A stretch of DNA of 57,242 nucleotides, the filler included, from Jimgerdemannia flammicorona (taxonomy: Eukaryota): NCBI GenBank assembly GCA_003990765.1. It is 2 parts of 2 records of this genome, joined end to end, with 100 filler letters (N's around TTAATTAATTAA, not from the genome) between each part and the next. Parts side by side here need not be neighbours in the genome. Positions count along the whole stretch, not along the records: positions 1 to 28,576 come from RBNJ01000550.1; 1 more part is not named here. One strand, given 5' to 3'. The notes beneath the pieces are model-generated. The model saw only the letters and a list, made by a program, of their open reading frames with translations, was not told where the DNA came from and ran no database searches. Both the position numbers and the translations under genes were made by a program. Positions 10,696-43,020 of the stretch are shown here, piece by piece. Numbering within the stretch: position 1 is the first letter of the stretch; every line of letters begins with the position of its first letter.

Positions 10696-10889
10696 ATTTA
10701 CTTAAAGATGTATTAAATTTTTTTCAGTATTTAATTATGTATTTAAGAAGTAGTATTATAGCTATGATTGAAATTCTGAGAAAGTTGAATAGTATTTTTA
10801 TAATATTTTCAAGCACTAACTATCTAATAAATAATCTTTTATAATATATCTTTACCTTAATACTTCTAAATTAATCTCTTAAATAGTAT

Positions 10890-11956: not shown

Positions 11957-12210
11957 TTTTACGAATTCAAATGGACTACTTATGCTTACATCCATACTGG
12001 TTGTCCTTATGTATGTCTTATGATCAATCAATAAACTATGAAGCTCTGTCTCGTCCGGCCCTTGGCTATTCTAGGTTGTTCCACAGGCCCTCGATTTGGG
12101 ACGCGTCAATTTTGAGGCACAGAATTACCATCATCATTTTGTTATCTGGATAAAAGACACTCTTCTCCCTCGTGTCATTCATATTCAACGAACGCCATTA
12201 CCAGTCCACC

Positions 12211-12705: not shown

Positions 12706-13346
12706 ATTTTTACAGGCTTTACTTATTAATACCATTCAAAGTTATACTTTATAATCAACACACTTTGAACCTCTATGCCTCTATATCTATGAATTCTATT
12801 TGCCTATGTCTATGCCAGGTTTTATGAAAAAGTAGAACAAAGAACAATTGGAGCCTCTACTATTTAAATGTCAATATACTTTACTAATTTATCAAAAATT
12901 ATATATATTATACTAAGTATATATTATTTATAAAGTTTATTAAAATTTCAAAATGTCTCCTCCTTTTCTATCTTATAATGAATGAAATTTAAAGAAGTAT
13001 ATTTTTAATAATTTTGTAAAAAATAAATTCTGATACTTAAAAATCAATATTTATAACCAAGTAAAGCTCAATATATTTTAAAGTTATAAACATCAAAAGT
13101 AAGTTAAAAATTATATTGCAATATGTATCATAGTTATTAAAATAGTCTATATATTGGAATGCATATAATAGTAAAGTTCTATGGTATAATGAATTGACAT
13201 TCAGGTAATAAGAAGTCCTTGGGGGAAATCCTGCATAGACATAGGCTAATCAGACTCATAGACATAGATGTTCTGATTGGATGAATTATAAATAACAAGG
13301 TCTAACAGCATGTATATGTATAACATGAGTGGAGTCTACGAAATGT

Positions 13347-13877
13347 CTATTGAATCTCGTGAAATTGGAGCTGAAAGCGAACTAAACGCATTTCCGGGTC
13401 CTTCGTAGGCCAATATACAGAGGGATGAGCCTTTGTAATGATTTCATCCACACTGAACCGGCCCCTATTTACTATTTTCTCGAGCTCCAGCTTGAATCTG
13501 TTGAATTCCTTGTCGTCGTTAAATCTATCATTGACGAAGTCCCAGAAGGCTGTCCAGTCCAGACGGTCGCAGGCGCTACGCTCCTCCAATTTAAGTTTGT
13601 TTATAACTTCCTTGCGGCTCTTACAGTCCGCGGGGTTTCTTGCTGTGACCGCCACCAGTTTCCCTGGCTCGAAATTCGGGAATCGCATGTCAATCACTAC
13701 GAACCTGCCCCAGCGTTTTCGGTTCTTCGCTAGAACGTGGTCGTGGATTATTTGGATGAAGCGCACTATGAACGCACCATACACCTCCATCATAGGGCTA
13801 CAGCCGGATACTTGATCTTCAGGAGGTGCGCGGGATCTACATGTTGGTGAACTTCGGCGCGAGAATATGTTACCCAT
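13347..13877 (-). CDS. Hypothetical 176-aa protein with N-myristoylation motif (MGNIFS), paralog 3
   Basis: Intact ORF homologous to 11447-11956; TATATAA on the minus strand at ~13933-13939. Confidence 0.82.
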   Translation of the reverse strand: MGNIFSRRSSPTCRSRAPPEDQVSGCSPMMEVYGAFIVRFIQIIHDHVLAKNRKRWGRFVVIDMRFPNFEPGKLVAVTARNPADCKSRKEVINKLKLEERSACDRLDWTAFWDFVNDRFNDDKEFNRFKLELEKIVNRGRFSVDEIITKAHPSVYWPTKDPEMRLVRFQLQFHEIQ

Positions 13878-14401
13878 GGTGAACTGGCTGAAGGGGTTTG
13901 AAGTGAATAGAATTCAAATTTTACTGGGAGGATTATATAGTTGGTCGGGCGTTTTGCATAATAAACCTTTGTTTTTTTTTTTTTAAAAAAAAAATAAAAT
14001 AAAAAAAAAATCATTCCCAGCGGATATTGCTTTCATTTTGGTTCAGTAGATTCTCGATCAAAAACCGTGTTAGGTCAATGTTGCCCTATTTTATTTTTCC
14101 TTTTTACATCGCCGTCCGCATATCACGTTCTCTGCATATATTTCGCGCTCGCGCGCGCCTCTTATATGTATTTTATCCTCGCGCCCCCCTTTATATATTT
14201 TGTTCTTCAACTCCGTGACGCCAATGTCCCATTCCTCACGTGCAATACGCCCAAGTGTCCATATAATGTCGAGGAAGTTAAAAAGTGACTTAACAGTATT
14301 AACTAAGTCGAAAATCTCCCATATTCACTCACTTGATTACTTTTGACTTGATATGACCGGTCATCTGGTTGATATGGCTGATCTGGACTTATCTGGATGC
14401 C

Positions 14402-14630
14402 AACTAAGCGCAGTGCGGTGATGACTAAGCACAGAGTGCCAACGAACGACGACTTAGCGCAGAGCAGTGACGATGATACGGTGACAATGCGCGGAACTGT
14501 GATAAACGAATACTAAGCGCAAAATGGCACGACGGACATGGATGACGGCTGACGGATAAGCACAGAACAATGACAACGATTAAACGCAGGACGGCGATGG
14601 ACGAGAACTATGTGCAGAATGACGACGATA
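14402..14630 (+). repeat. Degenerate minisatellite, ~8 copies of an ACTAAGCGCAGA-like core at 21-44 nt spacing
   Basis: Cores at ~14403, 14424, 14452, 14484, 14512, 14556, 14579 and 14607. Confidence 0.65.
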
Positions 14631-14935
14631 GTGGTCCGGATGAGTCAATCTAGAAAACCAACCACTGCGAGGTACTCGCTAAGCGATTTCGGCAGTCATT
14701 GTAGTAGGGCATTACGGTAGAGTGTAAAGAGTATGTCGTGGCTAGGAGTGGGAGTGGTATGACATGCCTTTCATTAATTGTGTCCTAACCACACGTGAAG
14801 GTCAACTTATAAATGGCTCTGCAAAGAGAGCTACACATATTGTACGTGCGCAGCTGGTAGTCAGGCTGAGTTCCGTGAAAAATTGCTTATAAGACCCAGG
14901 TCCTATCAGGAATTTCATTTGTAAACGAGTGTTGG

Positions 14936-15232
14936 GTTGAAGTCCCCGATTATGGCGAAAGGCGGCGAAGTTCATCGTTTAGAAGGGGAATGGCTGCAAA
15001 GTCTCCGATTACGGTGAATGACGGCGAGTTCGTTGTTTAGGAGGCGGCAAAGTCCCCGATTAAGGCGGGATTAACGTTTAGGAGAAGCGAATGGCGGCGG
15101 AATCCTCCATGAAGGCGAATGACGGCGAGGCGTATTTTTAAGGAAAAGGCGAAATCCCTAATTAAGACGAATGATGGAGTAGTTCACCGTTTAGGAGGAG
15201 CCAAATGGCGGCGAGGTTCATTGTTTAGGAAA
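14936..15232 (+). repeat. Degenerate 50-60 bp tandem repeat, 5-6 units
   Basis: Recurring AAGTCCCCGATTA.GGCGAATGACGGCGA.GTTC..CGTTTAGGAG blocks. Confidence 0.75.
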
Positions 15233-16009
15233 GAACTTGCCCACATATGGAAGTCTTACGCGATGATGCAGGAACGTTTGTGAAGGGATTGTTTGCATTT
15301 TTTAAATAACCCGAAATTGGAAAGATAAAGCAATTCTGGTTGACTAAGAAAGCATTCAAAAAAATGCGAAATAGGGTCTAGATAGGTGATGTTACGTTCT
15401 GATCTCTTAAAAATTCTCTAATAAAGTATCGATGAAGATCTAAGAAAAACCGCTGGTGGGTTTGCCTAGAAATTCACGAGTGTAACAGGCTCGGAGAGCA
15501 GACGATTTTGGACATCTGAAGAGCATCTTGTTCCAAATGCGCCCAATAAACTTTACTTCGGAAATGAGTTTTCTGTAGACACTGTGGTAGATGCACTTTT
15601 CTGATTTGTGCGTTAACATTACTAATCAATTTTCATCAGTTTCGACGACATTCTGGAGATGCTCAATGCATCTACACTGAGTTCCTCTGCAAAAAAAATG
15701 TACATATACCCTTCTTTCTGCAATAATACCATATAAGTAATGGTCTCAAGGAAATCAAAAGGTCCCCACCCATTAAAGAACACAAGCTCTAACAAGTCAA
15801 CAAGACGCCTTCACAAGCAGTAATAAGTTCAAGAAAGGCTTGTAATGTGTCTTGTGGAAGAGAGCTTATATCAGAATACCATAATAGAAAAGTTTATGAT
15901 GCAACATATTGTCACTCAGGCTGCAAAGACTCCAACTGTGCCTACTTCTGCTATCTCAAAAATCACCGCATAGGTATAAACAAATTGTAATCATAGACAA
16001 AAAACGTCT

Positions 16010-16510
16010 ATTAATTTGTGAAATCGGAACTGAAATTGTTCAAAGGTCGATAGACTATAGGATGTGTTGTAACCCACACTGAGCCGGTCCCTGTTCACTC
16101 TTGTCTCGAGCTCCAGCTTAAATCTGTTGATCTCTCCCACCTCGTGAAATACTTTCTCGACAATGTCCCACGGTTCAATTACATCTGAAAGGCTTGGTAC
16201 GGCAGGGGATTCGCCATTGTAATGATGTCAAAACGGAGCCTCCTATTCACCTTTGTTTCTAGATCCATATTGAATCTTTCGAATTCGTTTCCCACATCGT
16301 TAAATTGTTCTTTTGAAAAAGTCCTAGAACGTTTCCCAATTCAGACCGTTTCAGCTGCTGCACTCCATGGATTTTAGCCTTTATATCATCCCCTTGAGGC
16401 TCTTACTGTCCGCGGGGTTCTTTGTCCAATTTTCCTGGTCTGTGTTCGGGAATTGCAAGTCAAGTTCGCTAGGACTTGGTCGTAGATCATCTGAATGAAG
16501 TGCACTTCCA
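16010..16510 (-). pseudogene. Decayed paralog 4 of the MGN.. family with a duplicated C-terminal segment
   Basis: FIQMIYDQVLA, DLQFPN, KNPADSKS, LNWETF*DF..FNDV..FERFNMDLETKVNR, then again WDIVEKVFHEVGEINRFKLELETRVNRDRLSV. Confidence 0.75.
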
Positions 16511-16667: not shown

Positions 16668-17001
16668 TGTAACTCTACCATTGGCCATTAAAGGAAGAAG
16701 TCCACTGTAAGCTACTACATGCTTAATAATTAAATACATAGAAGCTTTCAGCAGACTTCTTCTGCAAGGATTACTCAGAGAAGTTTACATATCATATGGA
16801 ATTAGCTAGCAAATAGCTGAAACCTATATAAATAAGAAGAGATTAGAAATAGTAATAAAGCAGTTCTGAAATCTTAAATAAGTAAGTGTTTATTGCCAAG
16901 GACTAGATATTCAAGAAATATCTTATACAATAGATCACTTCTCAGACTCTTCAAGTGATTTCTAGATATATTTCTTAGTGAATTCTAGTAAATATATCTA
17001 T
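16668..17001 (+). mobile_element. LTR of family E, interrupted by an LTR of family C
   Basis: Starts TGTAAC, with TATATAAAT at ~16826 and AATAAA at ~16854. It is an inverted copy of ~19765-20089. Confidence 0.7.
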
Positions 17002-19200
17002 TATAATAGTGACCTCAGAATAATAACATCAGTATAGGAGACAGCCTTTCTTATAAGCTACCAGATCAGAAGGAGATCATATGACATAACTCACTCAGAC
17101 TATGAGATGAGTGATGATGACCAACTGAAGTCATTGTGACTACAGTATAGGTATATTGAGAAATATAAAAGAAGAATCAAGGAACTATAGTAGTAGTAAC
17201 TCAATAAGACCCACCAATCTCAAAATAGCTTAAAGACTTACTATAAATGAAATACCTGCTGCTTATTAAATCTCAAGGTCAAGGAACCACCAAGGTCTCT
17301 CAGTTGAAAAAAGGATGTTCCAAGACATCAGAAGAGCTATGAGGACCTATACAAAAAGGACTCCTAGTCTCAACCTGGGTACCAAAAATCCTTATCACTT
17401 TATCCTCTACTGCTGTAAAATGGAAACAAGAATCACCATTGCTACTGAATGCCTCTAAATATAGCAGAAGTATAAAATAGGAAACCTTCTCTACCAGGGG
17501 TTCCCACAGACCAGCTCTCAAGAGTTATAAGATATCACTTCTATAGATATATATGAAATAAGAACAGCTAAGAAGATTTATCAGATCTTCAGACATGTAC
17601 CATAGTTGATCCCCAACTTGGAGTATACTAGAGTCACAGACTTCAGAGATCTGTCAGCCTACTATATTAATACACTAGAAGCCAGAGTGGCAACAGAAGT
17701 CCAGTCCACTATCACTCTTGATAGTAATGAGATAGAAGAGTTCTGGTATCTCATTCTTAAGAACAATCTAGATCAATTCCTATAAAGATTGATCTCTGTA
17801 TTCTAAGGCCCCAGCATCCAGATCAGATCTCCCTAAGACCTTATATTTGTTTCCTATTATATAGAAGAGAACCTCATAGATTAGAGAGTCCCCAATTTCC
17901 CCACTACTGAATATGATGACATTATCAGTAATAATGTCATTCTATGCAATATATGTAAAATATATGATAAAACCAATTTTATCTCCTTCAAAGACATCCT
18001 GACCTCTAATAAAGATAAGGCCTTCATAATCTTAAATATTTTGCTCTAAGTCCCTTAGTTATACTGAATTATGATGGCATTCTTTTCCTGTGTAATAGCT
18101 ATTCCTCCACTGGTATTCTGACCTTATGTGACTCAGAATTATTCCAGCACCCTTTTTCTGTATTATTGAAATTATACCAGCATCCTGAACCTATATAACT
18201 ATCTGTGACTTATTCTACTAGAAAATAATATCTACAACTTCCTTTCTCCCTTCTAAGATCCTCTCACTGACCCTAACATAACTATAGAGAATGCAGAAAA
18301 TAATTTTGCTAGACTCTCTGAAGAAAATAAGAAGAAAGATAAGGATGATATAATCTCTATTATATTGAACTTTAAGATATATAAAGATGACTCTATTAGT
18401 CAAATTTGAATAAGTTAGTGACTACATATTTAAGTAGTCATATTTGGGTTAGTTAGTTAGTTACATAAACAGTGACTGTACTTTAACTAGCCAAATTTAT
18501 CACAAATATAAAACTAGCTTTTTTCAGTTAGTCACTTGAATTCCAAAGTATACTAAATAGTATTCTCTAGTAATTGTGAGTTTTAACCAATTACCCAGCT
18601 TTATATATAGTCTGAAATCTATATAAATACCCCTCTGATCTATAGTGAATAAACCTCAGTCAATTAGTATGTAACACAAGTCAATTAGTTTGTAATACTA
18701 ACTTAAGTTCTGAAAGACAAGAGAAGTCAAGTATAAGAAAAGACTCCAAGAGCTAAAGAAAATCACTCTTGCTACTACTGCTACAGAAATTGGATACAAG
18801 ACCCCAGAATTCAAGATTTAAGATATAAGACCATATTTTTAAAGATATGAGTCAATTGGTTTTACCAACTTAAGTTCTGAAAGACAAGGGAAGTCAAGTA
18901 TAAGAACTTTGAAAAAAGACTCCAAATGCTGCTATAGAAATTTTAATATTAAGAACTATCAAGAATTGCCACCATAGTTAGATAAGAAAATAACTATCAC
19001 TTAGAATACCAAGAACCACTACTACCATGAAAATCAGGTACTAGATCCAGAAACACTTACTAGAAAACTCACCAGAGATACTAAAAAACAATCACCAACT
19101 ATCAGAAAGCTCAGAAAACCTGCAGAAAACATTCTTTGACTATTTCAATATTCTGCTATTCAAAACACCTAGTTATATAACCAATAATCTGTAACATGTG
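17002..19200 (+). mobile_element. Long (~2.2 kb) LTR of family C containing an ORF remnant; 3' end approximate
   Basis: The start tataatagtgacctcagaa is a transition-mutated form of tgtaacggtgaccccagaa at 28187. TATAAAAG at ~17164, TATAAATACCCC at ~18622, AATAAA at ~18648. Confidence 0.7.
17252..18413 (+). pseudogene. LTR-embedded accessory ORF (~385 codons), family C
   Basis: Homologous to 28428-28539 (MSAACQTSRSRNHQG..) and at protein level to 23596-23808 on the minus strand. Read in one frame for the first ~270 codons, with stops explicable by transitions; 3' end approximate. Confidence 0.7.
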
Positions 19201-19654
19201 AATTCCAACCTGATATAAGAAATATAAATAAATTGAAGAGTAGTTTAACTGAAAATTGAGCCAGAACATTGTTAGTAAAGATATTAATAGTCTATATATA
19301 TAATTAGTAGCACCATTGAGTTATATATATCAGTATCTATTAGTAACCAAATCTATACAAATTATATACCACAATATATACTTAGAGAATTATTAGATCT
19401 TATTTAACTATTAACTAAGTTTATAGTATAGTATATTAGATATCTTTCTAATTATTAATAGAGTTTATAATCTATATTATAAATAATTATAAACTAAATA
19501 GAAGAAGTAATTTTATTAATAATATAAAGTAATATATTTTATATATTACTATTAATAATATAATATACAAGTTATTTAATAATATATTATATAGATAATA
19601 AGTTGTAAATCAATATTATATATATTAGTAGCTTAGTTCAATTTATATAACAGT

Positions 19655-22600
19655 TATGAGAGTTCTATAAAAAAATTTGATTACTAGGAAATTAGTCAAT
19701 AAAAGAAGTAAGTTATAGGAGTATATAAGAGTAGTTTGTAGAAGAAATTACTGAGAATATACAGATATATTTACTAAGAAATCTATTAAGAAATATATAT
19801 ATCTAGAGATTACTGAGAATGTTTGAAAAGTAATCTATTATATAAGATATTTCTTAGATATCTAATTCTTAATAATATATACTTACTTATTCAAGATTTC
19901 AGAACTGTTTATTACTATTCTCAACCTCTTCTTATTTATATATTTGCTAGCTAATTTTATTATAATATATAAACTTCTCTGAGTAATTTTTATAAAAAAA
20001 GTCTACTAAGAGTTTTTATATACTTAATTATTAAGTATATATTAGCTCACAGTAGACTTCTTTCATTAATAGTCAATTATAGAGTTATATAAGAATTTTT
20101 CTTATTAAGATATATTGATTTCTGAATATACATATATCTCTATATTCATATTTCTTTATTTTGATATATCTATCTCTTAATTGATTAATTATAGATATTA
20201 TTATATAATAAGAATGAGAGCTAGTAGAAGACATCAGATAGAAAATATCTGTAAGTAGAAAAGCTATAGATTATTTAGTAGAATCTCAGGAGTCTATAAT
20301 CTATAAGTAATATAAGTATAGTAGTTATAAGGATTTAACTATCAAATTCTGCCAATTTTTAATCAAGTACTATAAATTTATAAAGAGCTCTAATAAGCTC
20401 CCATCAGTACTTAGGAACCTAAGAATAATCTTAATAGAAATAGTATCTGTAATGTACCAGCTTACTATATTTAGAACTATATATTATATATATTATAGAT
20501 CTTTCTCAGATATTCTCCAACTAGTGGAAAATTATTCTCTTATAATCTATAAGATCCTGATTGAGATTCATTTATACTGCTACTCAATATATTTAGCAAT
20601 TTATTGATATAGAGTAAAGAATATATATTTTTGATAGTTGCTAGATTGAGCTTATAGAAATTATTACAATACTATAGATTTCTATCCTTCTTATCAATAA
20701 TGACCACCAGTGAGGTCTAGAGGCTTACTGACTATTAAATTATAATAAGTATTATTAGTTTGCATAGTTTTTCTAATATGAACTTCTTTTTTTTTAAGCT
20801 GAGCCTATATTCTTTTTGATAAATTGAAATAGTATTATGTATCAGTATAAATATAATATTATATAAGAGTACTATACTCAAACTCTTCTATCTTATTAAT
20901 GAATAGAGTATTATTCAATATAAGAATGAGAGTATTAAGTTGGTCTTTTCTAAGATCTAGACTAATTATTAATATAGTAATACTTGGGTACTGATTTCTT
21001 CACTATTATCTCTTATATATAAGGTATTATTCAATCTACTATCTTCATTAATATTCTCAACTCATACTTACTAGGTACTAGTCTGAACTGATATATTATT
21101 ATTATTATTCAAAATTAGACATATAGTATTTAAGTAGATATTTACTTCTCTGGATTAAAATTAAGCCATTCTGACTAAAATTATTACTAGTAAGTATCTA
21201 GAAATACTATTATATCAAATCTATACTTCTTGGTACCAATTTTCATTTTGAGACTTTTTATTATATCTAGGAGTATAGAGCCCCATTCACTATATTTATA
21301 ACTAGATTGGTGAGCTTGATGACATATTCTATTTTTTTGACAATATATTCTCGAATATAGTTCTCTAATATATAAGTATCAAAGATCACTCTCTAGATAT
21401 CTATTTCTATATTATTATATAGGACTATAGTTGGCTTCATAATAGTAGTAGTACCTATAATTATAGTTTTTTTATAAGTTATAGATTCTATAATAGAGTT
21501 TATAATGAGTTTTATAGATATTATATCTCTTTATAACTCTTACTTGAGTTTCTTATAAGTAAGCAGTAAAAGTGCTAGAAGTTGTCCATAAGTAATACTA
21601 GTATTAATATTTAGAAGAAAGACTGCAAATAAGTGGAGATCTTTATTATTCATCATCTTAATTATTCTATACTTCTAGTAGTTTTTAGACTTTTTTTTAG
21701 AGATGATGGTAAAAGATTAAATATTTAAGCAATCAATAGTTCTATCTTACTTACTTCTTCTATCTATTTTTTTTATCTATTAGTTCTATCATATATTTAT
21801 AGTCTCACTAGTTATAGTTGTAACTATATCTCTTATCTTATATATTCTTCTTCTTAATAGATCATAACAGATGTTCTTTATAATTAGATTAGTTGGATAA
21901 GCCTCAGTTTGATCCCTGAGTTCTTCTTTACTAATATCTACATAGTTAGTAGCAAATTACTAGAATATAGAGATCATTTGAACTGAGATATTATTACTAT
22001 ATATTAGTTATAAAACTTTAATTATTATCTTGGTAGTAGGATGAGCAATGTTTTATAATATATATATCTAATATTATTATATTTGCAATATTTTTATAAA
22101 GTAGTAGAGATATACTATTATTATATTTAAACTATTATATATATATTCTATTATTAATTTGTTATATATTATTATTTATTATTATATTAATAATCTTCTT
22201 TATGAGCTCTATCAGATTATCATTACTGGAGGAGATTGTATAAGCTATATGTATATTGACTATAGAGTTCTGACTTTATATTAGTTGGACTATAAAGGGA
22301 TTCAGTTTAGATATAGTATTATAAGAGTTTATTAATAGATTCTAGACAGTAAAGAGTATAGTAAGTCTTGGAACAAATATTATCAGTCAGTTTATTTCTA
22401 TTTAGCTTGTATAATCTTACTATACTCTCTGAGTGGTAGTAAGTATGTTGTCAAAGATTTCGATTTATATTTTATTATATTTTACTTCTATATAGATATA
22501 ATTTATTATTATAAGATATACTCTTTTATCTCTTATACTTAATACTATAGAGAGCATAATTCTTCTTTATATAGATTCAGAATACTTTTGGAGTCTCTTC

Positions 22601-23110
22601 TGGTCCTATCTATATGATACTAAATAGGTTGGCAATATATTCTTAATTTCTGATAAAATATTAAATGATCTAATCCTTAAGTATATTATAAGTAATCTGA
22701 GCTAAGTTGGCAAGAGTGACAAGAGACTACTATTAATAGAACTATAGTTATGATATCTTAGATAAACTCTGAGACTTCTTCTTAAAGATAAATATGTAGA
22801 GTATCTACTTACTTATTATTATTATAGATCTATTATTCAACTATATAGATTTCTAAGTTCTCAAAGAACTTGAGGATATTTTTATTATAGATATCAGTAT
22901 AGTATATAGAGATTTTATATGATATATATATTTCTTAGATATAAGTATAGTATAAATTTTTAATATTGAGTAAAATAAGATTCCTCAACATTTTCACCAA
23001 TGTGAGGTTTTTATAAAGAAATTTGATTGTTAGGAAATTAGTCAATAATAGAAATATATTATAGAAATAAATAAGAATAGTTTATAGAAGAAAATTATTA
23101 AAAATATATA
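19655..23110 (-). mobile_element. Extremely degenerate, internally deleted Ty3/gypsy element, family E
   Basis: 3' LTR at 19655-20089; the remnant 5' LTR at 23001-23110 repeats 19655-19770. PBS-like TGGTGAAAATGTTGAGGAATC at 22979-22999 is tRNA-Ala-like after reverting transitions. RT N-terminal remnant (FYKLNLATIKNIYSLLYINKLL) at ~20590-20700. Confidence 0.65.
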
Positions 23111-23111
23111 G

Positions 23112-24372
23112 TATTATATAGTGGTTGCTAAATTCTTCAAATATATCAGATTCTCTTTAAAGTATATCTCTTAGACTAACTCAAGTTTGTTATAAGTAAG
23201 TTAAACTTCTTATCTTTAAACTGTCTTGTTATCTCTTAGATTGCTTATATGGAATTGAGGGTAAATAAACTAGAACTGACTTTATTTTGAAGGAAATAAG
23301 AGGGGTATTTATATAAAATATAATTTAATAGTTGCTAAGATATAAAGCTAAATATAAATTCCAATAACTAAATAAAATACTGGAACACAGAAAACTGCCA
23401 AGTTCCAGTGTTAGAGATTATCATTATTCTTCAAGTTGTCTAGGGTGATATCATTCTGCTCTTGAGGTCTCCAGTCAATAGTGAGGTTATCTATAAAGTA
23501 GGAAATATCTGTAGAGTTCTGAGAGTAGTAGATTATCAGAGAAGAGTCTTGAAATAGTACAATTAGACTATGAAGAAATTGGTCTGGATTGTCCTCTAAA
23601 ATAGAGTTCCAAAGATCTTGAACTTTATCACTCTAGTAGATTGGACCTCCTTGGCAACCATTTTCTCAAGGTGGTCTATATGATGGCTTCTTAATTCTTG
23701 AATATCAGAGACCTTAATATACTCAAGATTGGAAATAGTCCAGGCACATATATATAAATTGAAGATCTGGTGGACTCTTCTGGCTAGTTTTTGCTCATAT
23801 TTGTCCATACATATAGTATCTTCAATTTCTTGAAAGCTGGTCTATGAGAACTCTTAGCAGAGATGATGTTCTATTTTATATTCTTACTATATCCAGAGAC
23901 ACTTAGTGGTAGTAGTGATTCTTGTCTCCATTTTCTAGTAGTTGAGAATATAGTAATAGGGGTCTCTTATATAGAGGTTTAGACTAGGAATCCTTCTTAT
24001 ATATAGCCTCATTACTTTCTTAATATCAGTGAACATTTATTCTTGAACTGATGGACCTGAGTAGCTCCTTGACCTTACTATTTGGCAGATAGCAGATATT
24101 TTGTTTTGTAGTAAGTTTTGTAATTGATGTCTTATCCTCTTTCTCTTGATGATTCTTTTATATATTGAGGGTCTGCTCCTTTAGTCCAGAGTATAGAGTT
24201 ATCTAACATGAGTAGTATACTGCTGGGATCATTATGAGTCATCATGAGTTTGGTTGTAGATCATCTTATGATCAAGATGAGTTACAGTTGAGTTATAACT
24301 TATAACTGGTGGCTTGCTAAGCCTAAGCAGTCTTCAGATTCTGATGTCACTAGTTTTAAAAATATCATTACA
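23112..24372 (-). repeat. 3' LTR of element D with an embedded ORF remnant (~24099 to ~23400)
   Basis: TATAAAAG at ~24160, ORF piece 23596-23808, then TATAAATACCCCTC at ~23300-23313 and AATAAA at ~23281-23286. Lower boundary approximate. Confidence 0.72.
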
Positions 24373-24699
24373 TCTGCCTCTTGTAAAATTAGAGCCATCC
24401 TCAGTAGTAGTGGTTGTACAGAAATAGTAGATCTTAGTTCTCTTTTTTTTAGACTTTTGGTGTATTTACAAGAACTGATCATTCTTGTCTAAGATGAGGA
24501 CTCTCATTGTTATAACTGGGGATTTGAATCTCTCAGAAATGGTATTTTCTGTAATCTGAGGTAATTTCTAGTAGCTTATCATCTATTATATAGATAGACT
24601 TAAGACTGGTTTCAATATTATTGGCTTTTTTAAGTTCCAAATGAAGTATCTGTTATTTTTCAATAGAGATAATACAGATGAGGTGATTGGAATTACTCA

Positions 24700-27600
24700 A
24701 ATATATTTTACTTCTACTAAATAGTAAGGTCTTATATAGTTGCAGTATATTATATTCTTGAGTATAGCTCTATTCAAGGTCTTGAGTTGATAGATGTGAT
24801 TTATGAATACTTGATGTATGAGATAAGGTCCTTTTTATTTTAGTTCAAGTTTAGTACTTCAGTTTCCTTCTATGATAGTATATTATACTAAGACTTATTG
24901 TCTAATAAGTAGAAGTTCTAGGTTGGCTTTACAGTTATAATACTTTATTTACTATTCTTATATTTTAGCAATAAATTCTTATACTTGTAGTATACTTTAT
25001 ATAACTGGGTGATCTCTTCAGTGACTTGTTTTGTCAAATCTAGCTGAATCAGTTCAGCAGAGTCTTGTACTTCTTAGCCATATACTAAATAAAAGGGGGT
25101 CTATTGGATAGTAGTTACCTTTGAAGTATAGATACTGAATAGAATTACTAGAAAGTATATGTCTCAGTTTAGCTAATCTCTAGTTTTGCTGAGGCCTCAC
25201 TAGATGGTCTGGTTCATTTATTCAGTAAGTCTATTAGCTTATAGATGGTAGACTGTTATTGAGCACAGTTTGATCTTGAAGTTACTTGTAAAGATCTTTA
25301 TGACTTTTTTGACAAATTCTCAGCCTTGGTCTGTGATGATTTCTTTGGAAATCCCACAGTGGCTGAAAATTTTATCATATGAAATCTCAATAATTGTCTA
25401 AGCATCAGTAGTCTCAATGATAAAGACTTCAGGTCATTTTTTTTAGATAATCTTAGATAGTAAGAATATAAATAATATCTATTCCTAGTCTCTAAAAGAC
25501 TCTAGCTAGTACTGTGATTAGTATTAGTAGTGCTTTATCTATTGGCTTTTATCAGTATCTTTGACAGATATCATATTGTTAAATGTGAGTTGAAATTTGT
25601 TTCCTCATTTTTGGCCACCAGTATCTCTTCCAATTCCTCAGTATGTATTTTGATCATAATTGGTTATGAGTATTTTTGATATTTCATCTTCTTAGAGAAC
25701 TTAGATATATTGATCTCTTTCTACTCTCCAAAGTTCACTATTGTCTTCTTGAAATTTCTTAAAATTTCTTTGAATGAATAGCTTATTGGCTGGCTGAATT
25801 TCTTTCTTGAAGCTTCTGTAGTATAGGCTCTAGATGAGGGTGAGGCACAGTTCTCAGTTCATTTAGATGGATGGAAAGTAGTCTTCTCTTATAGGGACTC
25901 CTTCTCTTGAGTTTATGGAATTTTTGACAGAATATCAACATTGGAATTCTTGACATCTTTCTTGTAGACAATAGTGACCTGATATTCTTACAGAGATATA
26001 ATCCATCTTACAAAGATTCCTGAGGGTTCTGGTTTATTGAATAACTATTATAGAGCTTGGTGGTCAGTGATGAGAATAAATCTCTTTCTCAAGAGATAGT
26101 GTCTAAAGTGATCTACAGTCCATACTACTGTAAGATATTCTAGCTTGGTAGCTCTATAGTTTGCTTGTGTTTTATTAGTGGTCTTGCAAGCATACTCAAT
26201 AATATGTTCTTTCTTCTGATCATCTTGCTAGAATAGAATTGATCCAAGTTCAAGGACAGAGGCATTAGTTATCAGAATAAATAGTTTGTTAAAGTCTAAT
26301 TATACTAAGACAGGGGCTTCAGTGAGAGCCTTCTTGAGTAGGTCAAAGGACTTCTGTTATTCTTTCTTTCAGTAGAATGGTTGGTCTTTCTTGGAAATAT
26401 TATATAGTAGGGCTGCCTTGTCTGAAAATCTTGGAATAAATTACTAATAGTAAGATACCAATATAAGGAAGGATAGAGCTTCCTTTGCTGAGATAAGAGT
26501 TTGATAATCCTTGACTTTCTCTACCTTATATAGGTCTTGCAAGTATTGTTCAAATGTCTAAGAGTAGATTATTACATCATCTATATATACTAGTACATTT
26601 CTTCTAATGAGATCCTGGTAGATATAGTTTATTATTTATTGAAATAAGGTTAGTGTATTGCAGAGTCCAAATAGTATTTAGAGATATTTATACTGTCCTT
26701 ATCTAGTGATAAAGACTGTCTTGCAGATGTCATTCTTAGTAATAGGTATTACTTGGAATCCTTAAAACTGATTAGTAGTAATTATATACTTAGCTTTTTC
26801 TAGGGCATTGAGAAGGTTGTCAATTCTGGGTAGTGGGTAGATATCTTTTATAGTAATCTTATTAAGTTTTCTGAAGTCTACAACTAGTCTCTATTCTCCT
26901 TTCTTTGAAACTATAATTGCTATTAAAGCCCAGGGGCTTGATGAGAGTCTGATAACTCTATTTTATAGTATTTCATCTATATGTTGTTGTTTAAACTCAA
27001 TCAGGTAGTATGGTGTTCAGCAGGGGTGCTGTTGAATTGGTTTGGCATCTCCTATATATATAGTATATTCTCTGTATTGATATGATAGAAAGTTATTATA
27101 TGTAGTGATAAATATATCTTCATATTCTTTTATCAACTTCTATATCTATTCTATTGTTGCTGATCCTTGGTCAGAGTTGTTTTGATATTAATGACTTTGA
27201 TTACTGAGTCTTTCTCTCTAGTACTATTAGTCTCACTAGAGATGGCATGCCATTTCTCAAAAATTTGAAGACTTCTTCTTTATAGATAACTATCAGTAAT
27301 TCAAAATATCTCAATATTATTCCTTTAGAGATTGTCACTACTTCAAAGCCCAGGTTTTGGATAGGAATATAAATTGATGATATCTGGTTATAGATTTATT
27401 CTTTTACTAAGAGGAGGTGATATCTTTCTCAGAGTTCTATTGATGGCTTGAATATCAGATAATTGATATCTGTAGGTAGATATATATCAAGACCTTTTTG
27501 CTAATATAGTTGAAAGAGGATATCTTCTTTTGCTCAAATAGAGTAGCAGATGTGGGGTTTCATTTAGTGGAACTATACTACTATTGCTATATAGACTTCA

Positions 27601-27860
27601 ACAGGTAGTAGTGAGAGAGTTCTATTGGTACTTTCAAATTCTCCTTGTTCTCTCTAATTGATTCATCTCTTGAATAGTGGGCTATAATATCTTAATGAAC
27701 GGAATTTGACAGATGGCTTCCAAGGGGTTAAAGACTTGATAGTTTCTACTATTATTGCAAATAATGACTTCTTTTTCTACTGTAATTCCTTTGGCTGCCA
27801 GAGATAACCTTGATACTAGTTACCCATAATGTCCAGATGATATAGCAAGTATAATTTGAA
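24700..27860 (-). pseudogene. pol: Gypsy pol remnant
   Basis: dUTPase piece GHYG*LVSRLSLAAKGITVE (~27765-27840). RT motifs [31 protein letters not shown] and YIDD (26576-26587). RNase H motifs TNAS, ANYRATKLE, ITDHQAL. Integrase ITDQG; GPY at ~24825. Confidence 0.9.
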
Positions 27861-28186
27861 GGTTAAAGGTCCTGGTAGTTCTAGGGCAGAGTATTGTCTG
27901 ATAGGAGAGATAGAGATTATAATCTACTGATCCTTTTGTTTATACAAGAGGAGGTTGTGCCCAGGATGATAATAGCTTTACTTGAATAATTGGCTGAGTC
28001 TTGAGGAATGATGTCCCAGTGGTTACTACTATAGAAGAGAACTCCATACATTCTAACTTGAAGAATTACCAATATACTTTAGTCTTTGGATTCCTTATAT
28101 AGTTGAATCCAGTTCTTCCAAGTTAGTCTAAGGCTTCTATAAAGGTGAAGACAAGATTGACTCCTTGTTTGTCTTAGTGTGGCTAG

Positions 28187-28536
28187 TGTAACGGTGACCC
28201 CAGAATGATGATATCAGCACAGAAATAGCCTTTCTTTACAAGCCACCAGATCAGAGTACAAGAAGATTATACAGCATATGAGATGAGAAATGATGACCAA
28301 CTGTGAGTCATTGTGACCACAGCACAAGCATCCTGAAGAATATAAAAGAAGGATCAAGGAACCACAGTAGCAGCAACCAACAAGAACCCCCAATCCCAAA
28401 ATAGCTCAAAGACTTACTACAAATAAAATGTCTGCTGCTTGTCAAACCTCAAGGTCAAGGAATCATCAAGGTATCTCGGTTGAGGAAAGGATGTTCCAAG
28501 ACATCAGAAGAGCCATGAGGACCCACTCAAGAAGGA

Positions 28537-28539
<3 letters not shown>
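28187..28539 (+). mobile_element. 5' part of a younger family C LTR, cut by a poly(A) tail at the contig end
   Basis: TGTAAC start, TATAAAAG at ~28341, ORF ATG at 28428. Direct repeat of 17002-17363. Confidence 0.82.

Positions 28540-28576
<37 letters not shown>
28540..28576 (-). repeat. Poly(A) tail of a probable LINE insertion at the contig end
   Basis: A 37-nt T-run abruptly interrupts LTR C; the copy at 17360 continues without it. Confidence 0.7.
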
Positions 28577-28676
28577 NNNNNNNNNNNNNNNNNNNNNNNN
28601 NNNNNNNNNNNNNNNNNNNNTTAATTAATTAANNNNNNNNNNNNNNNNNNNNNNNNNNNNNNNNNNNNNNNNNNNN
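28577..28676. other. Artificial assembly spacer N44-TTAATTAATTAA-N44
   Basis: Exactly 100 nt; the central 12-mer gives stop codons in all six frames. Confidence 0.97.
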
Positions 28677-31600
28677 AGCCTCGCCACCAGATATTCAAAA
28701 TGTCCAACAGCAACCATTCCCAATGGGCCACCTTGTCACCAACCCCGACCCGCCACCCTTCTTCAAAGACATGAACCCAGTGCCCAGCCAACCCAACCCA
28801 CATAGCCAAAGCCCAACTAAGGGTCAGTCATTCATCCCCAACCCCACCCACCAGTCTCTGGCGAAGCTCTCCCCATCTCCCCCCTCCCTCTCCCTCTATA
28901 GCATCCAGCCCCACCTGGTCCATAATACATCTCCAGAACTCCTCCAAAACCTCACATTCACCAAGCCAATGTTCAGGCATTTGTATCACTCCACCCTCCT
29001 GACCAATGTTGAAACAATCCTCACACTCGAATATCCCACCGGCCACCAAGTATCCTGACCAATAGTTCAACATCACATTCCTCCATAGGACCTACCACCA
29101 CACCACCCAGAACTTGGGGGGCAGCCACTGCCTCACCTATTTGCTCCAACACCAGAGGCCATTCCAATCCCACTCCTCACCAATTCCAACCCTCTGCCAG
29201 GCTTCTGGCTACAGGTCTCCACCCAGGCCTCGCAGATACTCCAGACCCTCGCCAAGCTGAAAGTTCTCCACCGGAATGCCACCCAGTAGAAGCCTGTCCC
29301 ACCACCACATCCGCAGGTCCCAAACCTCCTCAGCTTCATCACCTTGCCACCAAAGTCCAATTTTCTTAGCACCATCTACCACCCCCCACCAAAAGCCCAT
29401 AAACCACATCCTCCTGCTCCCCTCCATGGCCACCATTGCGAGCAAGTCACTGGAACCACCACATGGGGAGTACTGAACCTCCCACAATCTCTGCATGAGT
29501 GGCACCCACTCTCGACCCCAAAGCTCACTCGCCCTTCACAGCCACCAGGCTCTCAGACAAAGAAGCCGCTTAGTAAAGTCCACTAAACCCAGCCCACCTC
29601 TCTCCAAGGGCAGTGTGAGCACCTCCCAACCAACCTGGCTTCACTGCCCTCTCCAGATCCATGACCTTGCCATCTTCAACAGCCTCTTGACCACTCAGGC
29701 TGGAAAGTCCAAGTAATATCTAACATACCACAGCTTCGGCATCCAGTATACATTCAACACCATCACCCTCCCGGCTAGGGACATATGCCAGCCTCTCCAA
29801 TGTAGCAAAACATTACCCCACTCCAGAAGTTTATGGTCCCACCATGCCCAGGGAAGAAGAGATCCAAACACCGAGAAGTAGATCTCCAAGTAATATACCA
29901 GTTCACCAGCTGGTACCACTGTCCCAATGATATCGCCACCAACAATTCCAGTGCCCAGCACCAGTGTCTCACATTTGTGCCAGTTTGGCTTAGCACCAGA
30001 ACCCCTCTCATACTATTCCACAGTCCTCTGTAACTCTCTCACATCCACCAAGGAGCCCAGCCCGACCACCATATTATCAGTAAAGGCCCCCACCTTCCAG
30101 TTAACCCCTAAAATGTCCAAACCTCCAATCTGATACTGAATTCTGTCCAGTAGTGGCTCCAGAGAAAGGGCATACAAAATGGGCAACAAGGGGTCTCCTT
30201 GTAGTACCCCACATCTCAGGGGAAAGGTCACCCCTCTGTGGCCATTGATGACCAATGCCACCTGACTATCCTCCAAGAGGCTGATCAATGATCCTCGGAA
30301 CCCCGGAGGAGTACCAATCCACTTCAGCACACCCTCTAGCCATATTCTCCGCACTCTATCATAAGCCTTCTCTTGGTTCAGAAACACCAATCGGCCATCC
30401 ACCCCTACTGCCCGGGTACCTTCAATCACTCCATGAACCCAGGCTGTCCCATCTTGAATCAACTGACCACTGACAAACCCACACTGTTCTACACCAAGCA
30501 CCTGCTGGGTGATTCCTTGCAGTCTCAACACCAAAATTTTCATCACCAGTTTGCGGTCTATATCAAGAAGCATAATTGGCTACCAGTTCTTCCAGTCCTC
30601 TCGTCTCCCCTTATTCTTATAGAGCAAGGAGACTAGCCCTAAGCGCTGTCCCCCAATCCAAACACCAGACCAAAGAACTCTATTGCACATAGCCATCATT
30701 TCCTCAAGCACCTCACCTACCCCAGTCATCTTCTGTCAAAAATCCCAGGGAAGTTCATCCTCTCCCGGGGCTGTCCCCTTACTCGTCGAGGCCACAATCC
30801 TGCAAATTTCCTCACCACTCACTGGGTCCCCCAATGCCCCAAGTCCCAACGCAGGGTTTGGGTGCCAATCCCCCAGCTGCCTTTCAACATCCAGAGCATC
30901 CAATTCTCCTTCCTCCTCACTCCAAAGATGCTTCTACCGGGTTCGCAATAGTCCTAGAATTGCCGGAGTCCCCACCATCAGCTCGCCATCTGCATCCAAA
31001 ACTCCCTCCCACCGCTTCCTTGTTTGTCATGCTTGTAACAACTGTGACAGGAACCTAGTTGGCCTCTCTCCCTCCTCAAGCCCCTGCCACCACAGGCGGG
31101 CCACTATTTCCTACAACTGCTCCTTCTCCTCCCTTCGTAGCACCCCTTTAAGCTCCTCTACCTCCTGCCAGATCCTTACTATATGCCAATCAGTCACATC
31201 CCCATCCTCCAGCACACCTGCCCATCTTTCCATAAGTGCTGCCAGATGCCGTAAGGCCCACTACACCCACCGCCTGTGCTGGGTATATTTCTCTTTCCCA
31301 GCTTCCCTCCAATACCCCTGAGCATTTGCCTTCAGTCTTCTCCAGCAGTCCCCAATCGCCAGTCCTTGTTCCTGCCACCTGCCAATATTACCCACCACCT
31401 CTGCTTCCCAACCCTCCCACAATACCCTATCCTCTAACAAGGAAGAATTTAGCTGCCAATGTCCAGGCCCATCCTCATTTCCCCCAAACCTCCCTCCTCC
31501 AAGTAGCCCCCAGTGATCAGACCATAGATACCATACAACTTCCAGCCCCGACCAGACATCTGCTCCCCAACACTCCGCTGTTAGAACCCAATCAATCCTG

Positions 31601-32193
31601 GAGCCCAACCCTGCTGCTCAATGGGTGTACACCCACCGATCAGCCCAAAAATGTCTCTCCGAGTCCACTAGAGAACTCAACCTCTTCATCTCCAATCAGT
31701 CACCCAACCCACCACTCTCACCCCGCATGCCTCTCCCACCATCAGTTCTGTCCAACTTCTTATCCTGTACTATATTGAAGTCACCCCCCAAACAGTCCAG
31801 TCCAACTCCTCCCAATACACCAGCCTCATTTAATTGACAAATCCAATCCACCCTCTCCCCTCTCTCAGCTGGGCAGTAATAAGACCCAACCATCAGCAGG
31901 CCCCATCCAGGCCTCTTCCACACTCTCCACACCACCCAAGATGCCCAATGTCCAATGTCCCCAATGTCCCCCATCCCTTTCCAAACAAGAATACACACTT
32001 TCCCCCTCCAAACTGCTGCACCCCCCCATTTCTTAGTCCAATCCTGTAAGTCCACATCTGCCTCATAACGAACATCCTGCAATAAAAAGAGGTCTGCATC
32101 CAGTCTCTTAAGCTAACCGAAAAAATACTTCCTCCTAGCCACCCCCTGTAACCCATTAATATTCAGCTAGAATATCCTAGTTGTACTATTCAT
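28677..32193 (-). pseudogene. LINE ORF2 (endonuclease-RT-CCHC), disrupted
   Basis: ATG at 32193. Motifs LLQDVR, GGDFN, SRIDW, SDH, LNQEKAYDRV, QGDPL, FTDN and CEDC..HWLGEC. Confidence 0.9.
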
Positions 32194-32224
32194 AATGAAG
32201 AAATGTTGCAACCAAGACCCCAAC

Positions 32225-34133
32225 CTATAATTCCATGCTCATCTCATCTCCTGCCAGATCCAAGTGCCATTCAGCTTCCAAGTCACCTTCTGCAATATCC
32301 TGAGCATCCAGTGCCCCCAAGATTTCCTGACATTCCACCCTGTCCACTTCCTCCATATCCACCCGGTAGTCCAAGCAGACTGCATGCCACTTTGCCAGTC
32401 CCTTCCTTGAGTTCCACAAGAAAGTGCCCTGTCACTTGCAATCTTCCTAAGTTCCTCCTCCTGCTGACCATCAACTTGATATTCGACCAGGAGGACAGCT
32501 AGGATCTCATTCCTCATCTTCCTTGGCACCTCCTCCCCCTATAGAATCTCCTCCCAGTGCCTCTCCTCCATCACCTGGAAGTCCTCACCCCCTAGCTCTT
32601 CAGCCGCTACCCCTTCCAGGGTCTTCTACATCCACTTCTCCTCATCCACCACCTCTGCCACACCTTGAGCGATTTGTCCCCCATCTACCTCAGGGTCCAC
32701 CAGCATGCTCCTCCTTACTGACTCATCCCACTCTTCATCCGGCACATCCATCAGCTCCTCCTCCCCCTCTGCTCCATCCGGAACACTATACTGAGGGTGC
32801 ACACCCTCCCCCATTTCGGCATCTGCTTTCAAATTGCCCTCCCTCTCCTCCCCCACTCCAATCTGAGCCCCACCCTGGGCCCTCTCTCCCCCCTCAGCCC
32901 AGGCACTCTCCTGCAACCCTGCAACTCCCTCCCCTGAGCTTCCACCAGCCCTACTCCCACTCAACTTCGCCAACAGCTCCTTCTGGATCTGCCTCCCCTG
33001 CATCTTCTCCCAGGCCCCCTTCTCCATCTGGACCCTCTACCCATCCACCTCCCCCACTACTGTCCTGGCCTCAAACTCCTTCCAGGCCAATCTCCTCCTT
33101 GCAACTGCCCCTTCCAGATCCTCCAGAGCCTTCAACAGGTCCTCCTCCTCCTCCTGGGTCCCCTTCACCCTTGCGACCTTACACTCCACCAGTCCCCATC
33201 TCAACATTGCTGGCCAGTCCCTTGACTTCCCCGTATTCTTCTTCCCAGCCAGCCTCACCCTGACATCAACATCACCAGTTTGAAGCTCCATTCCCTCCCA
33301 GACCTTGAATCCAATATTGACAATATCGCCATACTCCTGGATTGCCACCACAACCAACTCCCTGGTCCTCTCCTTCGATATGGTAGGGAGATCCAACACT
33401 GTCAACTGCACTACTCATGGGTCCCAGCACATGCACCAGGCCATAGGGACTACAACCCCTCCAACCATCAACCCCTTCTCTATGGCTGCCAACAAGGCAT
33501 CTTCCTCCTCAAACCCCACCTCAACCCCTTCCTTTCCCCTCAAAAACTTCACCGACGCCGCTCCCTTAGCCTCCTGCACCACCAGCCCCAAAATCATCCT
33601 TGCCATCACTGCCAAGCCCCAGAAGCACATTGTGACCACAATTCTGACCTCGACTTCTTGAGTAATGGGGCCGACACCATGCCCATCACCCCATCTGCCA
33701 GGTCTCTGGGCCTCATGCCCCCGCCCAGTCCCAAATTGCCAACCACTATCACATCTGGATTTTTTGCCAGATCTCCAGTCACAGCCCCATCAACAGTCAC
33801 ATCTCCAGCCCCTACTTCCACTCCTCCCCTGCCACCTGAGACTCCCTTAGATGCACCTCCCTGTCCCCCAGTAGCAGCTGTCGATGCCATCCCCAGGCCC
33901 AGCCAACCATCAAGGCCTGAGGCCATCTTGCCCATTCTGACCTTGTCAGCAAAGGTCAACCTCTCCCCTCCTCTCTGCCTCAGCCTGTCCCTCCCTCCAC
34001 CACCAGGACCTCGGCTAGCCATCGAGGCCTCCAGCATCCCCAAACCATCTTCCCTCCTTCCCACCTGCTGCCAGCCAAAGGCACTGTCACCCCCCTGGCC
34101 AGTACGCTCACCAGTTCAATCATTGCCATCCAT
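32225..34133 (-). pseudogene. LINE ORF1, disrupted
   Basis: ATG at 34133; fragments are homologous to copy 1 ORF1 and end in EMSMEL*. Confidence 0.85.
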
Positions 34134-34215
34134 GTTGCTAGTCGCTAAATACTGAAAACATAGTAAAAAGTGTTGTCTGAGTCTTGTGTCACCCAAATGT
34201 TACTGGTGAAAGATG

Positions 34216-35651
34216 ATTATATAGGGTTTCATCTATCTGCTGATTTCATTAGAGTACTTCTTTTTTTGAATGAAGTCTGTCTCACTTGTTGCAGATATAG
34301 AGGTCAAATTGTCCTTATACATCAGGTTCAATTCTCTCCAGATTTTTAGATAGTTCAGGATAAATTCTAGTTCAGAGGTTGGGCTTTATATCAACTTGTA
34401 GGAATTCTTAAAAGAGTTTGTAGCAGGGTGAGAAAGCATCTTGAAGTAGAATTAGATTGTAAACTGCTACTACTAAGTTGTAAGAGAGTTACCTTGTTAG
34501 AGTAACTGTTATAGTTCTGGAAGGTTTTCTGAAAGTTCTAGATATTCTGAAAGATTATTTTCTTAAGGTCAAGATCAATTTCATATGGAGTACATTCTCT
34601 ATACTTATTGATTTTAAGATCAGGTTAACATCTCAACCAAAGTCCTTTTTCAGACTAGTTCTGGAGGTTCAGGATTTTTCATATTTCAGGAAGTTCAAGA
34701 AACTAAGACCAGCTTAGTTGAATCAGCATATCACTGTAGACAATACCCAATTAGGAAATTTCATGATAGAGTTAAGAGTGGGATCTAATGGGGAGTAGAT
34801 TTACTTAAGAGTGATTTGTGGGTTATTAAATAGGTTTATTCACTATTTATGATATTGCTATACTAGGAGTAGTTGTATAAAGGGATATTGTAAGAAAGTG
34901 TTCAGGAATTATATTTGAATTGTTCAAGTCTTCAAGTCTGAGATTCTGAGATCTGGGAGAGAGGGTAGTTATACTAGTAAAGGGCTATCTGAACTAGGCT
35001 AGATATGGATGTAGCACTTAGTACTTTGCTGAGTTGGAATGCAGTCATATAGTACAAGTGTGATCTGATATATCAAGAGATTGTCTGACTACTGAGTCAG
35101 TTTACAGTTATATTACATAAGACTAATCTAACTATACTATAACTGCTAAGCTGTCTATAAATTTAGATGCTGTCTGGATAGTCTTTGATGATATCACCAT
35201 CAATGACATTATCTCTGATGAAGTAGTTATCTAGGAAAAGTTGTTCACAGATTAATTCTCCTTATTTACTAAGATAATAATATATTAGAACTTTGTCACC
35301 ATTCTACAGAATAGTATTATCTGTCTTATATACTGGATAAGGAGTTGGTGAGTGAAGGAGAGGTACATCATCTTCACTTTTATCAGATTTGCTATCTGTA
35401 TACCTTCTATAGATAATGGTACTATAAGTTGTAGAGTTGTAGTATGCTGGTAGTTGTGCTTCATGTTGTTCATATTCTGGTGGTAGAGTTATTGGTTCAA
35501 TCTCAAGGATTGTTTGAAGGTATAGATTGTGTTCTCTAGTCTCTTCATTATAGTTGAAGTAATCAAGAGTGAACATAGATTGGTACTTGAGCTAGTGGTC
35601 ATTGTCCCAATAGGTCTCATAGGTAGTTATGAACTTTTGTAAGTTCATCAG
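34216..35651 (-). mobile_element. Family A LTR retrotransposon fragment A1 (partial LTR 34397-35651, PBS, leader)
   Basis: Reverse complement of ~36555-37895 and ~53235-54640. Confidence 0.85.

Positions 35652-42954: not shown

Positions 42955-43020
<66 letters not shown>

Follow-up and report, generated by a model that had tools for sequence, protein, structure and literature searches.

The window analysed here is a stretch of 57,242 nucleotides, of which positions 1-28576 are contig C550 of the 231-Mb Jimgerdemannia flammicorona assembly (G000), a genome whose 88 matches to the Zn2Cys6 family PF00172 agree with a fungal origin; an N-filled scaffold gap with short palindromic filler occupies 28577-28680, and the DNA past 28576 is not on C550. 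CpG is a heavily mutated target in the repeats of this genome, and the observed/expected CpG ratio is 0-0.03 at 22001-28000 of the window and about 1 in the genes at 12001-16000. Differences within retrotransposon LTR pairs are almost all transitions (in the L188 pair, for example, 93 transitions and 2 transversions over the 1,540 nt compared), and the post-insertion decay of copies is therefore C-to-T change.

The minus strand carries a decayed Ty3/gypsy pol of family D, followed by an ORF-bearing LTR (Table 1); a Pfam search with the D integrase alone gave no match. The sequence-only reading had listed, in this order, the integrase GPY motif, a purine tract, TGTAAT, TATAAAAG, an ORF start, TATAAATACCCC, and AATAAA. 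All are confirmed on this strand: GPY near 24830, the purine tract (AAGAGGCAGA) at 24382-24373, TGTAAT at 24372, TATAAAAG at 24162, the start codon at 24099 (reading ATA), TATAAATACCCC at 23313, and AATAAA at 23286. Using 23200-24500 as a query against the genome, we scored 40 of 4,020 candidates and examined the best 30 D-type copies. Upstream of their TGTGA/TGTAA, 14 of the 30 have the same purine tract and 16 an unrelated AT-rich flank; because the copies share this boundary and differ in what flanks it, 24372 is the true LTR start, which places the ORF inside U3 of the D 3' LTR.

The whole series of motifs had been assigned to element D, and this holds from GPY to the ORF start only. Homology of the window D copy to other D copies breaks off at 23415 and resumes at 18208 on the plus strand; most other D copies depart from it at ~23418 and go on with DNA matching 18208 onwards. 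Conversely, copies of a second family, C, depart from the window C sequence at 18207 and go on with 23414 downwards, and CTAT stands on both flanks of the split C LTR. On the simplest reading, the window D LTR is a chimera produced by inversion of 18208-23414 after both insertions, exchanging the tails of the D LTR (~2.1 kb) and of a C solo LTR (~1.5 kb). Assembly error is a less likely source, since the breakpoints are exactly reciprocal and have no sequence in common. As the D tail is displaced and 23414-23112 is C-type, TATAAATACCCC and AATAAA near 23300 belong to C, and their D equivalents lie at 18622 and 18648. The layout of ORF followed by signal nevertheless holds despite the inversion, because the motif pair (TATAAATACCCC-type, then AATAAA) follows the ORF in both families, in 26 of 31 copies of C and 22 of 30 of D; three of the D misses are truncated loci, and four of the 22 match AGTAAA first.

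A third LTR adjoins the upstream end of D pol. It shares 79% identity with the C copy of the window and 66% with D, stops short at 28540, where it meets a poly(T) tract and the end of the contig, and, being a C-type LTR in opposite orientation, is not the 5' LTR of D. We also considered DIRS-like inverted terminal repeats formed by the copies at 28187 and 24372, and dropped this reading because C and D both form direct LTR pairs elsewhere. All three ORF copies in the window are broken by stops, frameshifts, or truncation; these copies are dead.

Table 1 Features of the window discussed in the text
Feature	Position	Strand	Basis or remark
Intact small gene	11447-11956	+	169 aa, N-terminus MGNIFS
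Intact small gene	13347-13877	-	176 aa, N-terminus MGNIFS
Decayed relatives of the MGNIFS small genes	~12250-12700 and ~16065-16424		
C solo LTR, 5' part	17002..18207	+	TATAAAAG at 17164; broken C accessory gene 17253-18049
Inverted segment (simplest reading)	18208..23414	.	Breakpoints 18207/18208 and 23414/23415 reciprocal, zero bases lost or duplicated
D LTR, 3' part, moved by the inversion	18208..19373	+	Continuation of other D copies; end from the C4131 LTR pair
Inside the displaced D LTR part	ORF stop 18407-18409; TATAAATACCCC 18622; AATAAA 18648	+	Also tandem duplications; end CCACA
C solo LTR, 3' tail, moved by the inversion	23112..23414	-	85-92% identity to tails of full C LTRs L061-L063
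TATAAATACCCC in the C tail	23313-23302	-	
AATAAA in the C tail	23286-23281	-	
U3, 5' part of the D 3' LTR, as far as the inversion breakpoint	23415..24372	-	Copy boundaries cluster at 24372 and 23418-23415
D accessory gene, first ~230 codons, broken	23415..24099	-	Translations, selection tests
TATA1, putative upstream TATA box for the accessory gene in the D LTR	24155..24162	-	TATAAAAG from 24162; 63 nt upstream of the start position
Short, impure polypurine tract of the D/G lineage (AAGAGGCAGA)	24373..24382	-	Same tract at LTR start in 14/30 D copies and G copy L195
~300-nt non-coding region after D integrase, also in the spacer of chromovirus E	24410..24712	-	Identity/alignment
D integrase with GPY motif, decayed, limits approximate	24700..25860	-	tblastn, 62% aa identity to a less decayed family-G integrase; translation
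D reverse transcriptase and RNase H, decayed, many stops	25900..27130	-	Pfam RVT_1 2.3e-14, RT_RNaseH 1.1e-27 (stops read as X)
Truncated C-type LTR	28187..28540	+	Antiparallel to D pol; TATAAAAG 28341, ATG 28428

Elsewhere in the window, four related small genes cluster in CpG-normal DNA at 11447-16424; the two intact ones share the N-terminus MGNIFS, which we take to be a possible myristoylation start, and neither has a Pfam match. A repeat of ~440 nt occurs twice, at 20087-19657 and as 16670-17001 together with 23111-23003, one copy having served as the insertion target of the C solo LTR. This repeat may have formed the termini of an older element that is now heavily decayed, with only two weak protein traces between the two copies. 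Related LINE-like elements with poly(A) tails lie on the minus strand at 1-5777, 5788-10285, 28683-34215, and 42988-49303 (86% identity between 250-5777 and 28683-34215), a further repeat family has direct and inverted copies at 34211-38918 and 52390-55655 (79-86% identity), and tandem repeats occur at 56846-57109 and 10936-11162 (a 33-nt unit containing TTAACCC and a 9-nt unit).

Placement of the gene in four families

The accessory gene occurs in four Ty3/gypsy families of the genome, C, D, E, and G, and is ~270-330 codons long, with natural stop-free frames both in the genome and in metagenomes (P0003-P0011, P0017). The Ty3/gypsy pol order protease - RT - RNase H - integrase is found in L188 (C), L180 (E), and the window D element (Pfam, tblastn). 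Direct LTR pairs with TG...CA ends, a PBS-like TGG site, and purine tracts are present in C, D, and E, the ends of the D pair on contig C4131 being decayed; target-site duplications are CTAT in L187 and L188 (C) and 5 bp in L179 and L180 (E).

Full elements with two ORF-bearing LTRs (C, L061-L063 and L186-L188; D, C4131) bear out the earlier claim that the ORF lies within the LTR. Family C has direct LTR pairs of ~1.54 kb enclosing gag-PR-dUTPase-RT-RH-IN, and each LTR carries the ORF in L061 (447-1987 and 7641-9172) and likewise in L062, L063, and L186-L189; in L188 both frames are stop-free. The D element on C4131 has LTRs at 210-2542 and 10308-12390, ~10.1 kb apart. Copies of family G share a boundary ~212 nt upstream of the ATG, so the LTR runs for ~212 nt before the ORF begins; one of them, L195, sits behind a D-type purine tract. 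In families C, D, and G, then, the entire ORF falls within the LTR, so that it is copied whenever the LTR is and persists in solo LTRs. A longer C ORF starting upstream of TATA1 was rejected, since the frame there is not constant across copies. Our literature search, word-literal and covering few subscription papers, returned no report of an ORF wholly inside the LTR of a fungal retrotransposon.

Family E, which the sequence-only reading missed, departs from this placement. It is a chromovirus (Pfam Chromo 1.7e-12 and SH3_Tf2-1 6.1e-21 at the integrase C-terminus of L180) with an 814-nt LTR devoid of the ORF; each element has a single copy, between pol and the PPT, whose stop abuts a canonical PPT, and metagenomic locus L191 has the same stop-PPT-TG junction. 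In the E deletion derivatives L179:5483-9399 and L184:3088-7116, ~2.3 kb of internal DNA is left, in which the integrase tail, the spacer, and the accessory gene are kept and gag and RT are gone; L184 is also without the PBS-like site.

The families differ in other respects. Insertion sites of C, D, and G are mostly AT-rich (CTAT or ATAT beside the LTR), and those of E have 5-bp duplications in ordinary sequence. A dUTPase is present in both C (L188:3750-5339, between protease and RT) and E (L180:2486-3496, ahead of protease). Copy-variable tandem repeats, with units of ~120-240 nt or as shorter duplications, lie 3' of the ORF in G (L193-L196) and in D LTRs (18660-18930 in the window).

Promoter motifs, selection, and probable exchange between lineages

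TATAAAAG had been noted 60-90 nt ahead of the start in three C/D copies, and the distances are indeed 89 nt (17164 to 17253), 87 nt (28341 to 28428), and, in D, 63 nt (24162 to 24099). Across the genome, TATAAAWR is found upstream of the start in 30 of 31 C copies (at 83-89 nt), 28 of 30 D copies (53-70 nt), and all 28 E copies with enough upstream DNA (68-73 nt), against a background of 0.02-0.06 per 100 nt in ORF bodies. Family G has a non-canonical box, TATTTAAG, at -62 in 7/7 copies, and the metagenomic relative L191 has TATAAAAG at -80, so that a TATA-like box stands 53-89 nt upstream of the start in C, D, E, G, and L191. Within a single family, the persistence of TATA1 counts for little, since C-to-T decay leaves T and A untouched; what supports TATA1 as a putative promoter is its recurrence in five families, above all in E, whose gene does not lie in the LTR. 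There, the LTR carries the downstream box (TATA2) only, and the internal ORF retains a TATA at -72. Downstream of the gene, TATAAATACCC is followed by AATAAA in C, D, and E, AATAAA beginning 25-27 nt past TATA2. Polymerase II initiation is expected at about that distance from a TATA box. This spacing fits a very short R and a TATA1 RNA that ends in the same LTR.

The earlier claim of peptide conservation between C and D stands, with 47-53% identity over the first 215 aa, and so does the excess of synonymous change that was to be looked for between them. In pairwise comparisons of 29 C, 28 D, and 30 E copies, the net C-D dS is 1.18 and dN 0.235 (dN/dS 0.20), and the net C-E dN/dS is 0.33; the copies were chosen by protein similarity, which biases dN downward. 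Off-frame ratios for C-D are 1.0-1.4 in four of five cases and 0.44 in the reverse frame with shared third positions. Since protein-based choice introduces this bias and transitions favour synonymous change, we repeated the comparison with transversions only on DNA-picked copies (31 C and 30 D), obtaining net rates of 0.098 at 0-fold and 0.255 at 4-fold sites. Between the window C and D copies, transversions affect 43/385 0-fold and 16/57 4-fold sites (p=0.0013); counting all substitutions, the figures are 129/385 and 26/57 (p=0.077), not significant alone. Stop-free cores are found in 6/29 C, 17/30 E, and 0/28 D copies. The substitution pattern shows that purifying selection acted on the accessory gene during the active life of the elements.

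This gene is common to pol lineages only 33-39% identical in RT. Identity in RT is 33-40% between E and either C or D, and C and D integrases are ~32-33% identical, for ORFs that are 47-53% identical; G integrase is 62-68% identical to that of four among the five D copies compared (the fifth, L070, giving 39%), for ORFs only 25-26% identical. As the ORF and pol relationships are discordant, the module has probably been exchanged between lineages, and we hold with fair confidence, on the basis of pairwise identities, that the promoter-gene module moved by 3'-end recombination. A candidate trace of such a move is the E spacer, 66-82% identical to the D/G post-integrase region (70% for the ~300-nt region of window D, 66-76% for other D copies, and 82% for G). 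The spacer starts with the D integrase stop and continues weakly into the start of D U3, with a gap over the D PPT. We infer that E captured a D/G-type 3' end, in which case the gene came to E from an LTR position. An integrase stop, 3' UTR, and U3 start of D/G type would then sit upstream of E's own PPT, rendering the gene internal in E.

The encoded protein and its expression

The predicted protein has a basic, Arg-rich N-terminus, with 7-9 K/R among its first 45 aa, and an acidic tail (14-33 D/E). Between them lie a helical core, modelled at pLDDT 75-93 over residues ~100-150, and a second module of small size; the maximum 19-residue Kyte-Doolittle value is 0.46-1.02 in four natural proteins, indicating no membrane segment. 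PDB sequence profiles gave 0 matches at E<=1 and at E<=5, and Foldseek gave 0 matches in PDB and BFVD at E<=0.001. The structure models reach a pLDDT of 60-65 only, and VIA-align against 48,161 chains gave best Z scores of 4.0 (rmsd 3.3, 80 aligned) and 4.8 (rmsd 3.1, 82 aligned), which, with models of this quality, do not show a new fold. An ESM Atlas assignment of the whole protein to a HECT domain (score 0.93, 167 shared features, low recognition 1693) was rejected as weak, there being no Pfam match and no HECT chain among the VIA-align matches listed; the clusters returned for residues 15-155 were unrelated and were likewise rejected as weak. The search for relatives also matched L192 at E 1e-4, and P0012 (E 6.9e-4), being repetitive, was dropped as a chance match. 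No longer, fused forms were found among 6,460 candidates, which is weak evidence.

On balance, we favour the view that the ORF is a genuine accessory gene which fungal Ty3/gypsy retrotransposons bear in the U3 of a two-promoter LTR and which may encode a regulator. Each LTR probably has two RNA polymerase II promoters, the second promoter being likely in view of its motifs. TATA1, ~160-210 nt into U3, would start an mRNA of ~1.15-1.2 kb for the protein, ending at the LTR AATAAA, and TATA2 would start the genomic RNA at about AATAAA, 27 nt on; with such a start, R would be very short and the 5' LTR would not cut the genomic RNA short. The earlier proposal that the LTR is a stand-alone unit with two promoters thus gains the conserved TATA-like box and the downstream AATAAA, both features of the DNA itself, and loses its ~1.4-kb transcript, the predicted unit being ~1.15-1.2 kb instead. 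Contigs of run X1, whose RNA origin is only guessed, cover the E ORF and LTR, and start, strand, and level are not readable from them.

As to the product, we tentatively suggest, at somewhat less than even chances, a soluble nuclear trans-acting regulator of the element's own expression, which would activate or protect element transcription against a background of heavy CpG mutation in repeats. A bolder version, which we regard as speculative, is that a promoter and a gene from a new protein family form a portable U3 cassette, which distantly related Ty3/gypsy lineages trade and which encodes a sequence-specific anti-silencing or trans-activating factor; every solo LTR would be a complete gene, such that deletion of the element leaves its regulator behind.

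Alternatively, the unit could be transcribed as proposed and its protein act on RNA in the manner of Rev, Rem, or CERV, in export, packaging, or translation, possibly through the ~300-nt D/G/E region. The Arg-rich N-terminus would suit such a role, CERV provides a precedent in an LTR retrotransposon (PMC10309623), and a non-coding stretch is 66-82% identical across lineages whose ORFs are only 33-37% identical. However, this stretch folds no better than shuffled sequences (z -1.66 for E and +0.71 for a decayed D copy), is not found in full C elements, and owes its similarity, since it begins with the D integrase stop, to capture of a D/G-type 3' end, all of which makes the RNA-acting protein unlikely.

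A protein acting on transcription or on RNA could also be made from a spliced subgenomic RNA of the normal 5' LTR promoter, as for env or some sag transcripts, leaving TATA1 incidental. Some MMTV sag transcripts are described as starting at the 5' LTR U3/R junction (PMC4667437), and a pyrimidine tract followed by AG lies shortly upstream of the E ATG; by eye, no comparable tract and AG precede the C ATG. Against this route, which we consider quite improbable, stand the TATA-like box 53-89 nt before the start in five families and the C-D alignment, which ends ~15 nt upstream of the ATG; moreover, this route would give no expression of the gene copies that sit in 5' or solo LTRs.

It is very doubtful that TATA1 is instead the main genomic-RNA promoter, with a very long R holding the ORF and no separate unit in the LTR. 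In C and D, TATA1 does fit the consensus well, but the E LTR, which has neither TATA1 nor the ORF, keeps TATAAATACCCC and AATAAA, so TATA2 is sufficient in E; a TATA1 RNA would, in addition, meet AATAAA inside the 5' LTR and place gag behind a 270-codon ORF. Finally, that the ORF has no role and is passive cargo, a piece of a captured host gene or other mobile element, as the broken state of all D copies examined and the lack of a known function might suggest, is scarcely credible given purifying selection across families with saturated synonymous sites, the conserved start and C-terminal motif, many stop-free copies, and retention of the gene in the L179 and L184 deletion derivatives without gag and most of pol.

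Comparison with known systems

A selected, self-contained LTR gene in several fungal lineages would extend a sag-like design to env-less retrotransposons, and numerous solo LTRs would be potential genes, affecting annotation and gene counts. Located within U3 in some families and immediately upstream of the PPT in another, and with traces of a move left in the sequence, the gene offers a natural test of how LTRs gain or lose coding DNA.

Extra 3' ORFs are familiar in Ty3/gypsy elements, although most of these elements transpose without such a gene, as is generally known and as a review of the additional ORFs indicates (PMC7264820). Its examples include the env-like ORFs of Athila and Bagy2, Grande gene23, RIRE2, Retand, and the fungal Boty; the extra ORF of Grande has its own promoter and encodes a nuclear protein, and, in the cases the review describes, the ORFs are internal and those with their own promoter are antisense (PMC7264820). 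The accessory gene resembles them as an additional conserved 3' ORF without a database match, and family E has it in the same position. It differs in being sense, not env-like, located in the LTR of three families, and shared across distant pol lineages. Compared with an env-like ORF3, we find a sense ORF between pol and the 3' LTR in E and L191 and inside the LTR in C, D, and G, with no transmembrane segment.

CERV of C. elegans Cer1 is reported as a novel accessory protein, made from a spliced mRNA, that exports genomic RNA (PMC10309623). The accessory protein has no detected homology to CERV, Rev, or Rem, and its one candidate response region, of ~300 nt, has shuffle z-scores of -1.66 and +0.71.

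Sag is a membrane superantigen of a mammalian betaretrovirus that has env. Its gene in MMTV is presented as the best-known exception to LTRs being ordinarily non-coding: it lies mostly in U3, has one of its promoters there as well, is present in genomes mostly as solo LTRs, and shows purifying selection (PMC4667437). Two promoters are also described for the MMTV LTR (PMC2723071). Our gene is similar in its U3 location, in its persistence in solo LTRs, and in a putative internal U3 promoter, represented here by the conserved TATA-like box. In contrast to sag, it belongs to env-less Ty3/gypsy elements of a fungal host, it lies with its start and TATA wholly inside the LTR, and its product has no membrane segment. 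Judged by sequence, the accessory protein is not a Sag homologue, with no Pfam family above cut-off for P0002 or the 21 alignment members.

VANC of the Arabidopsis VANDAL elements is described as a trans factor, encoded by the element itself, that acts against silencing and has rapidly evolving tandem repeats as its target (PMC10398659). VANDALs are class II plant elements, with no homology to the accessory gene detected, and the likeness is one of functional analogy only, in which the D and G LTRs also have tandem repeats downstream of the ORF. Should the accessory protein counter silencing, fungal retrotransposons would have in it their own equivalent of VANC.
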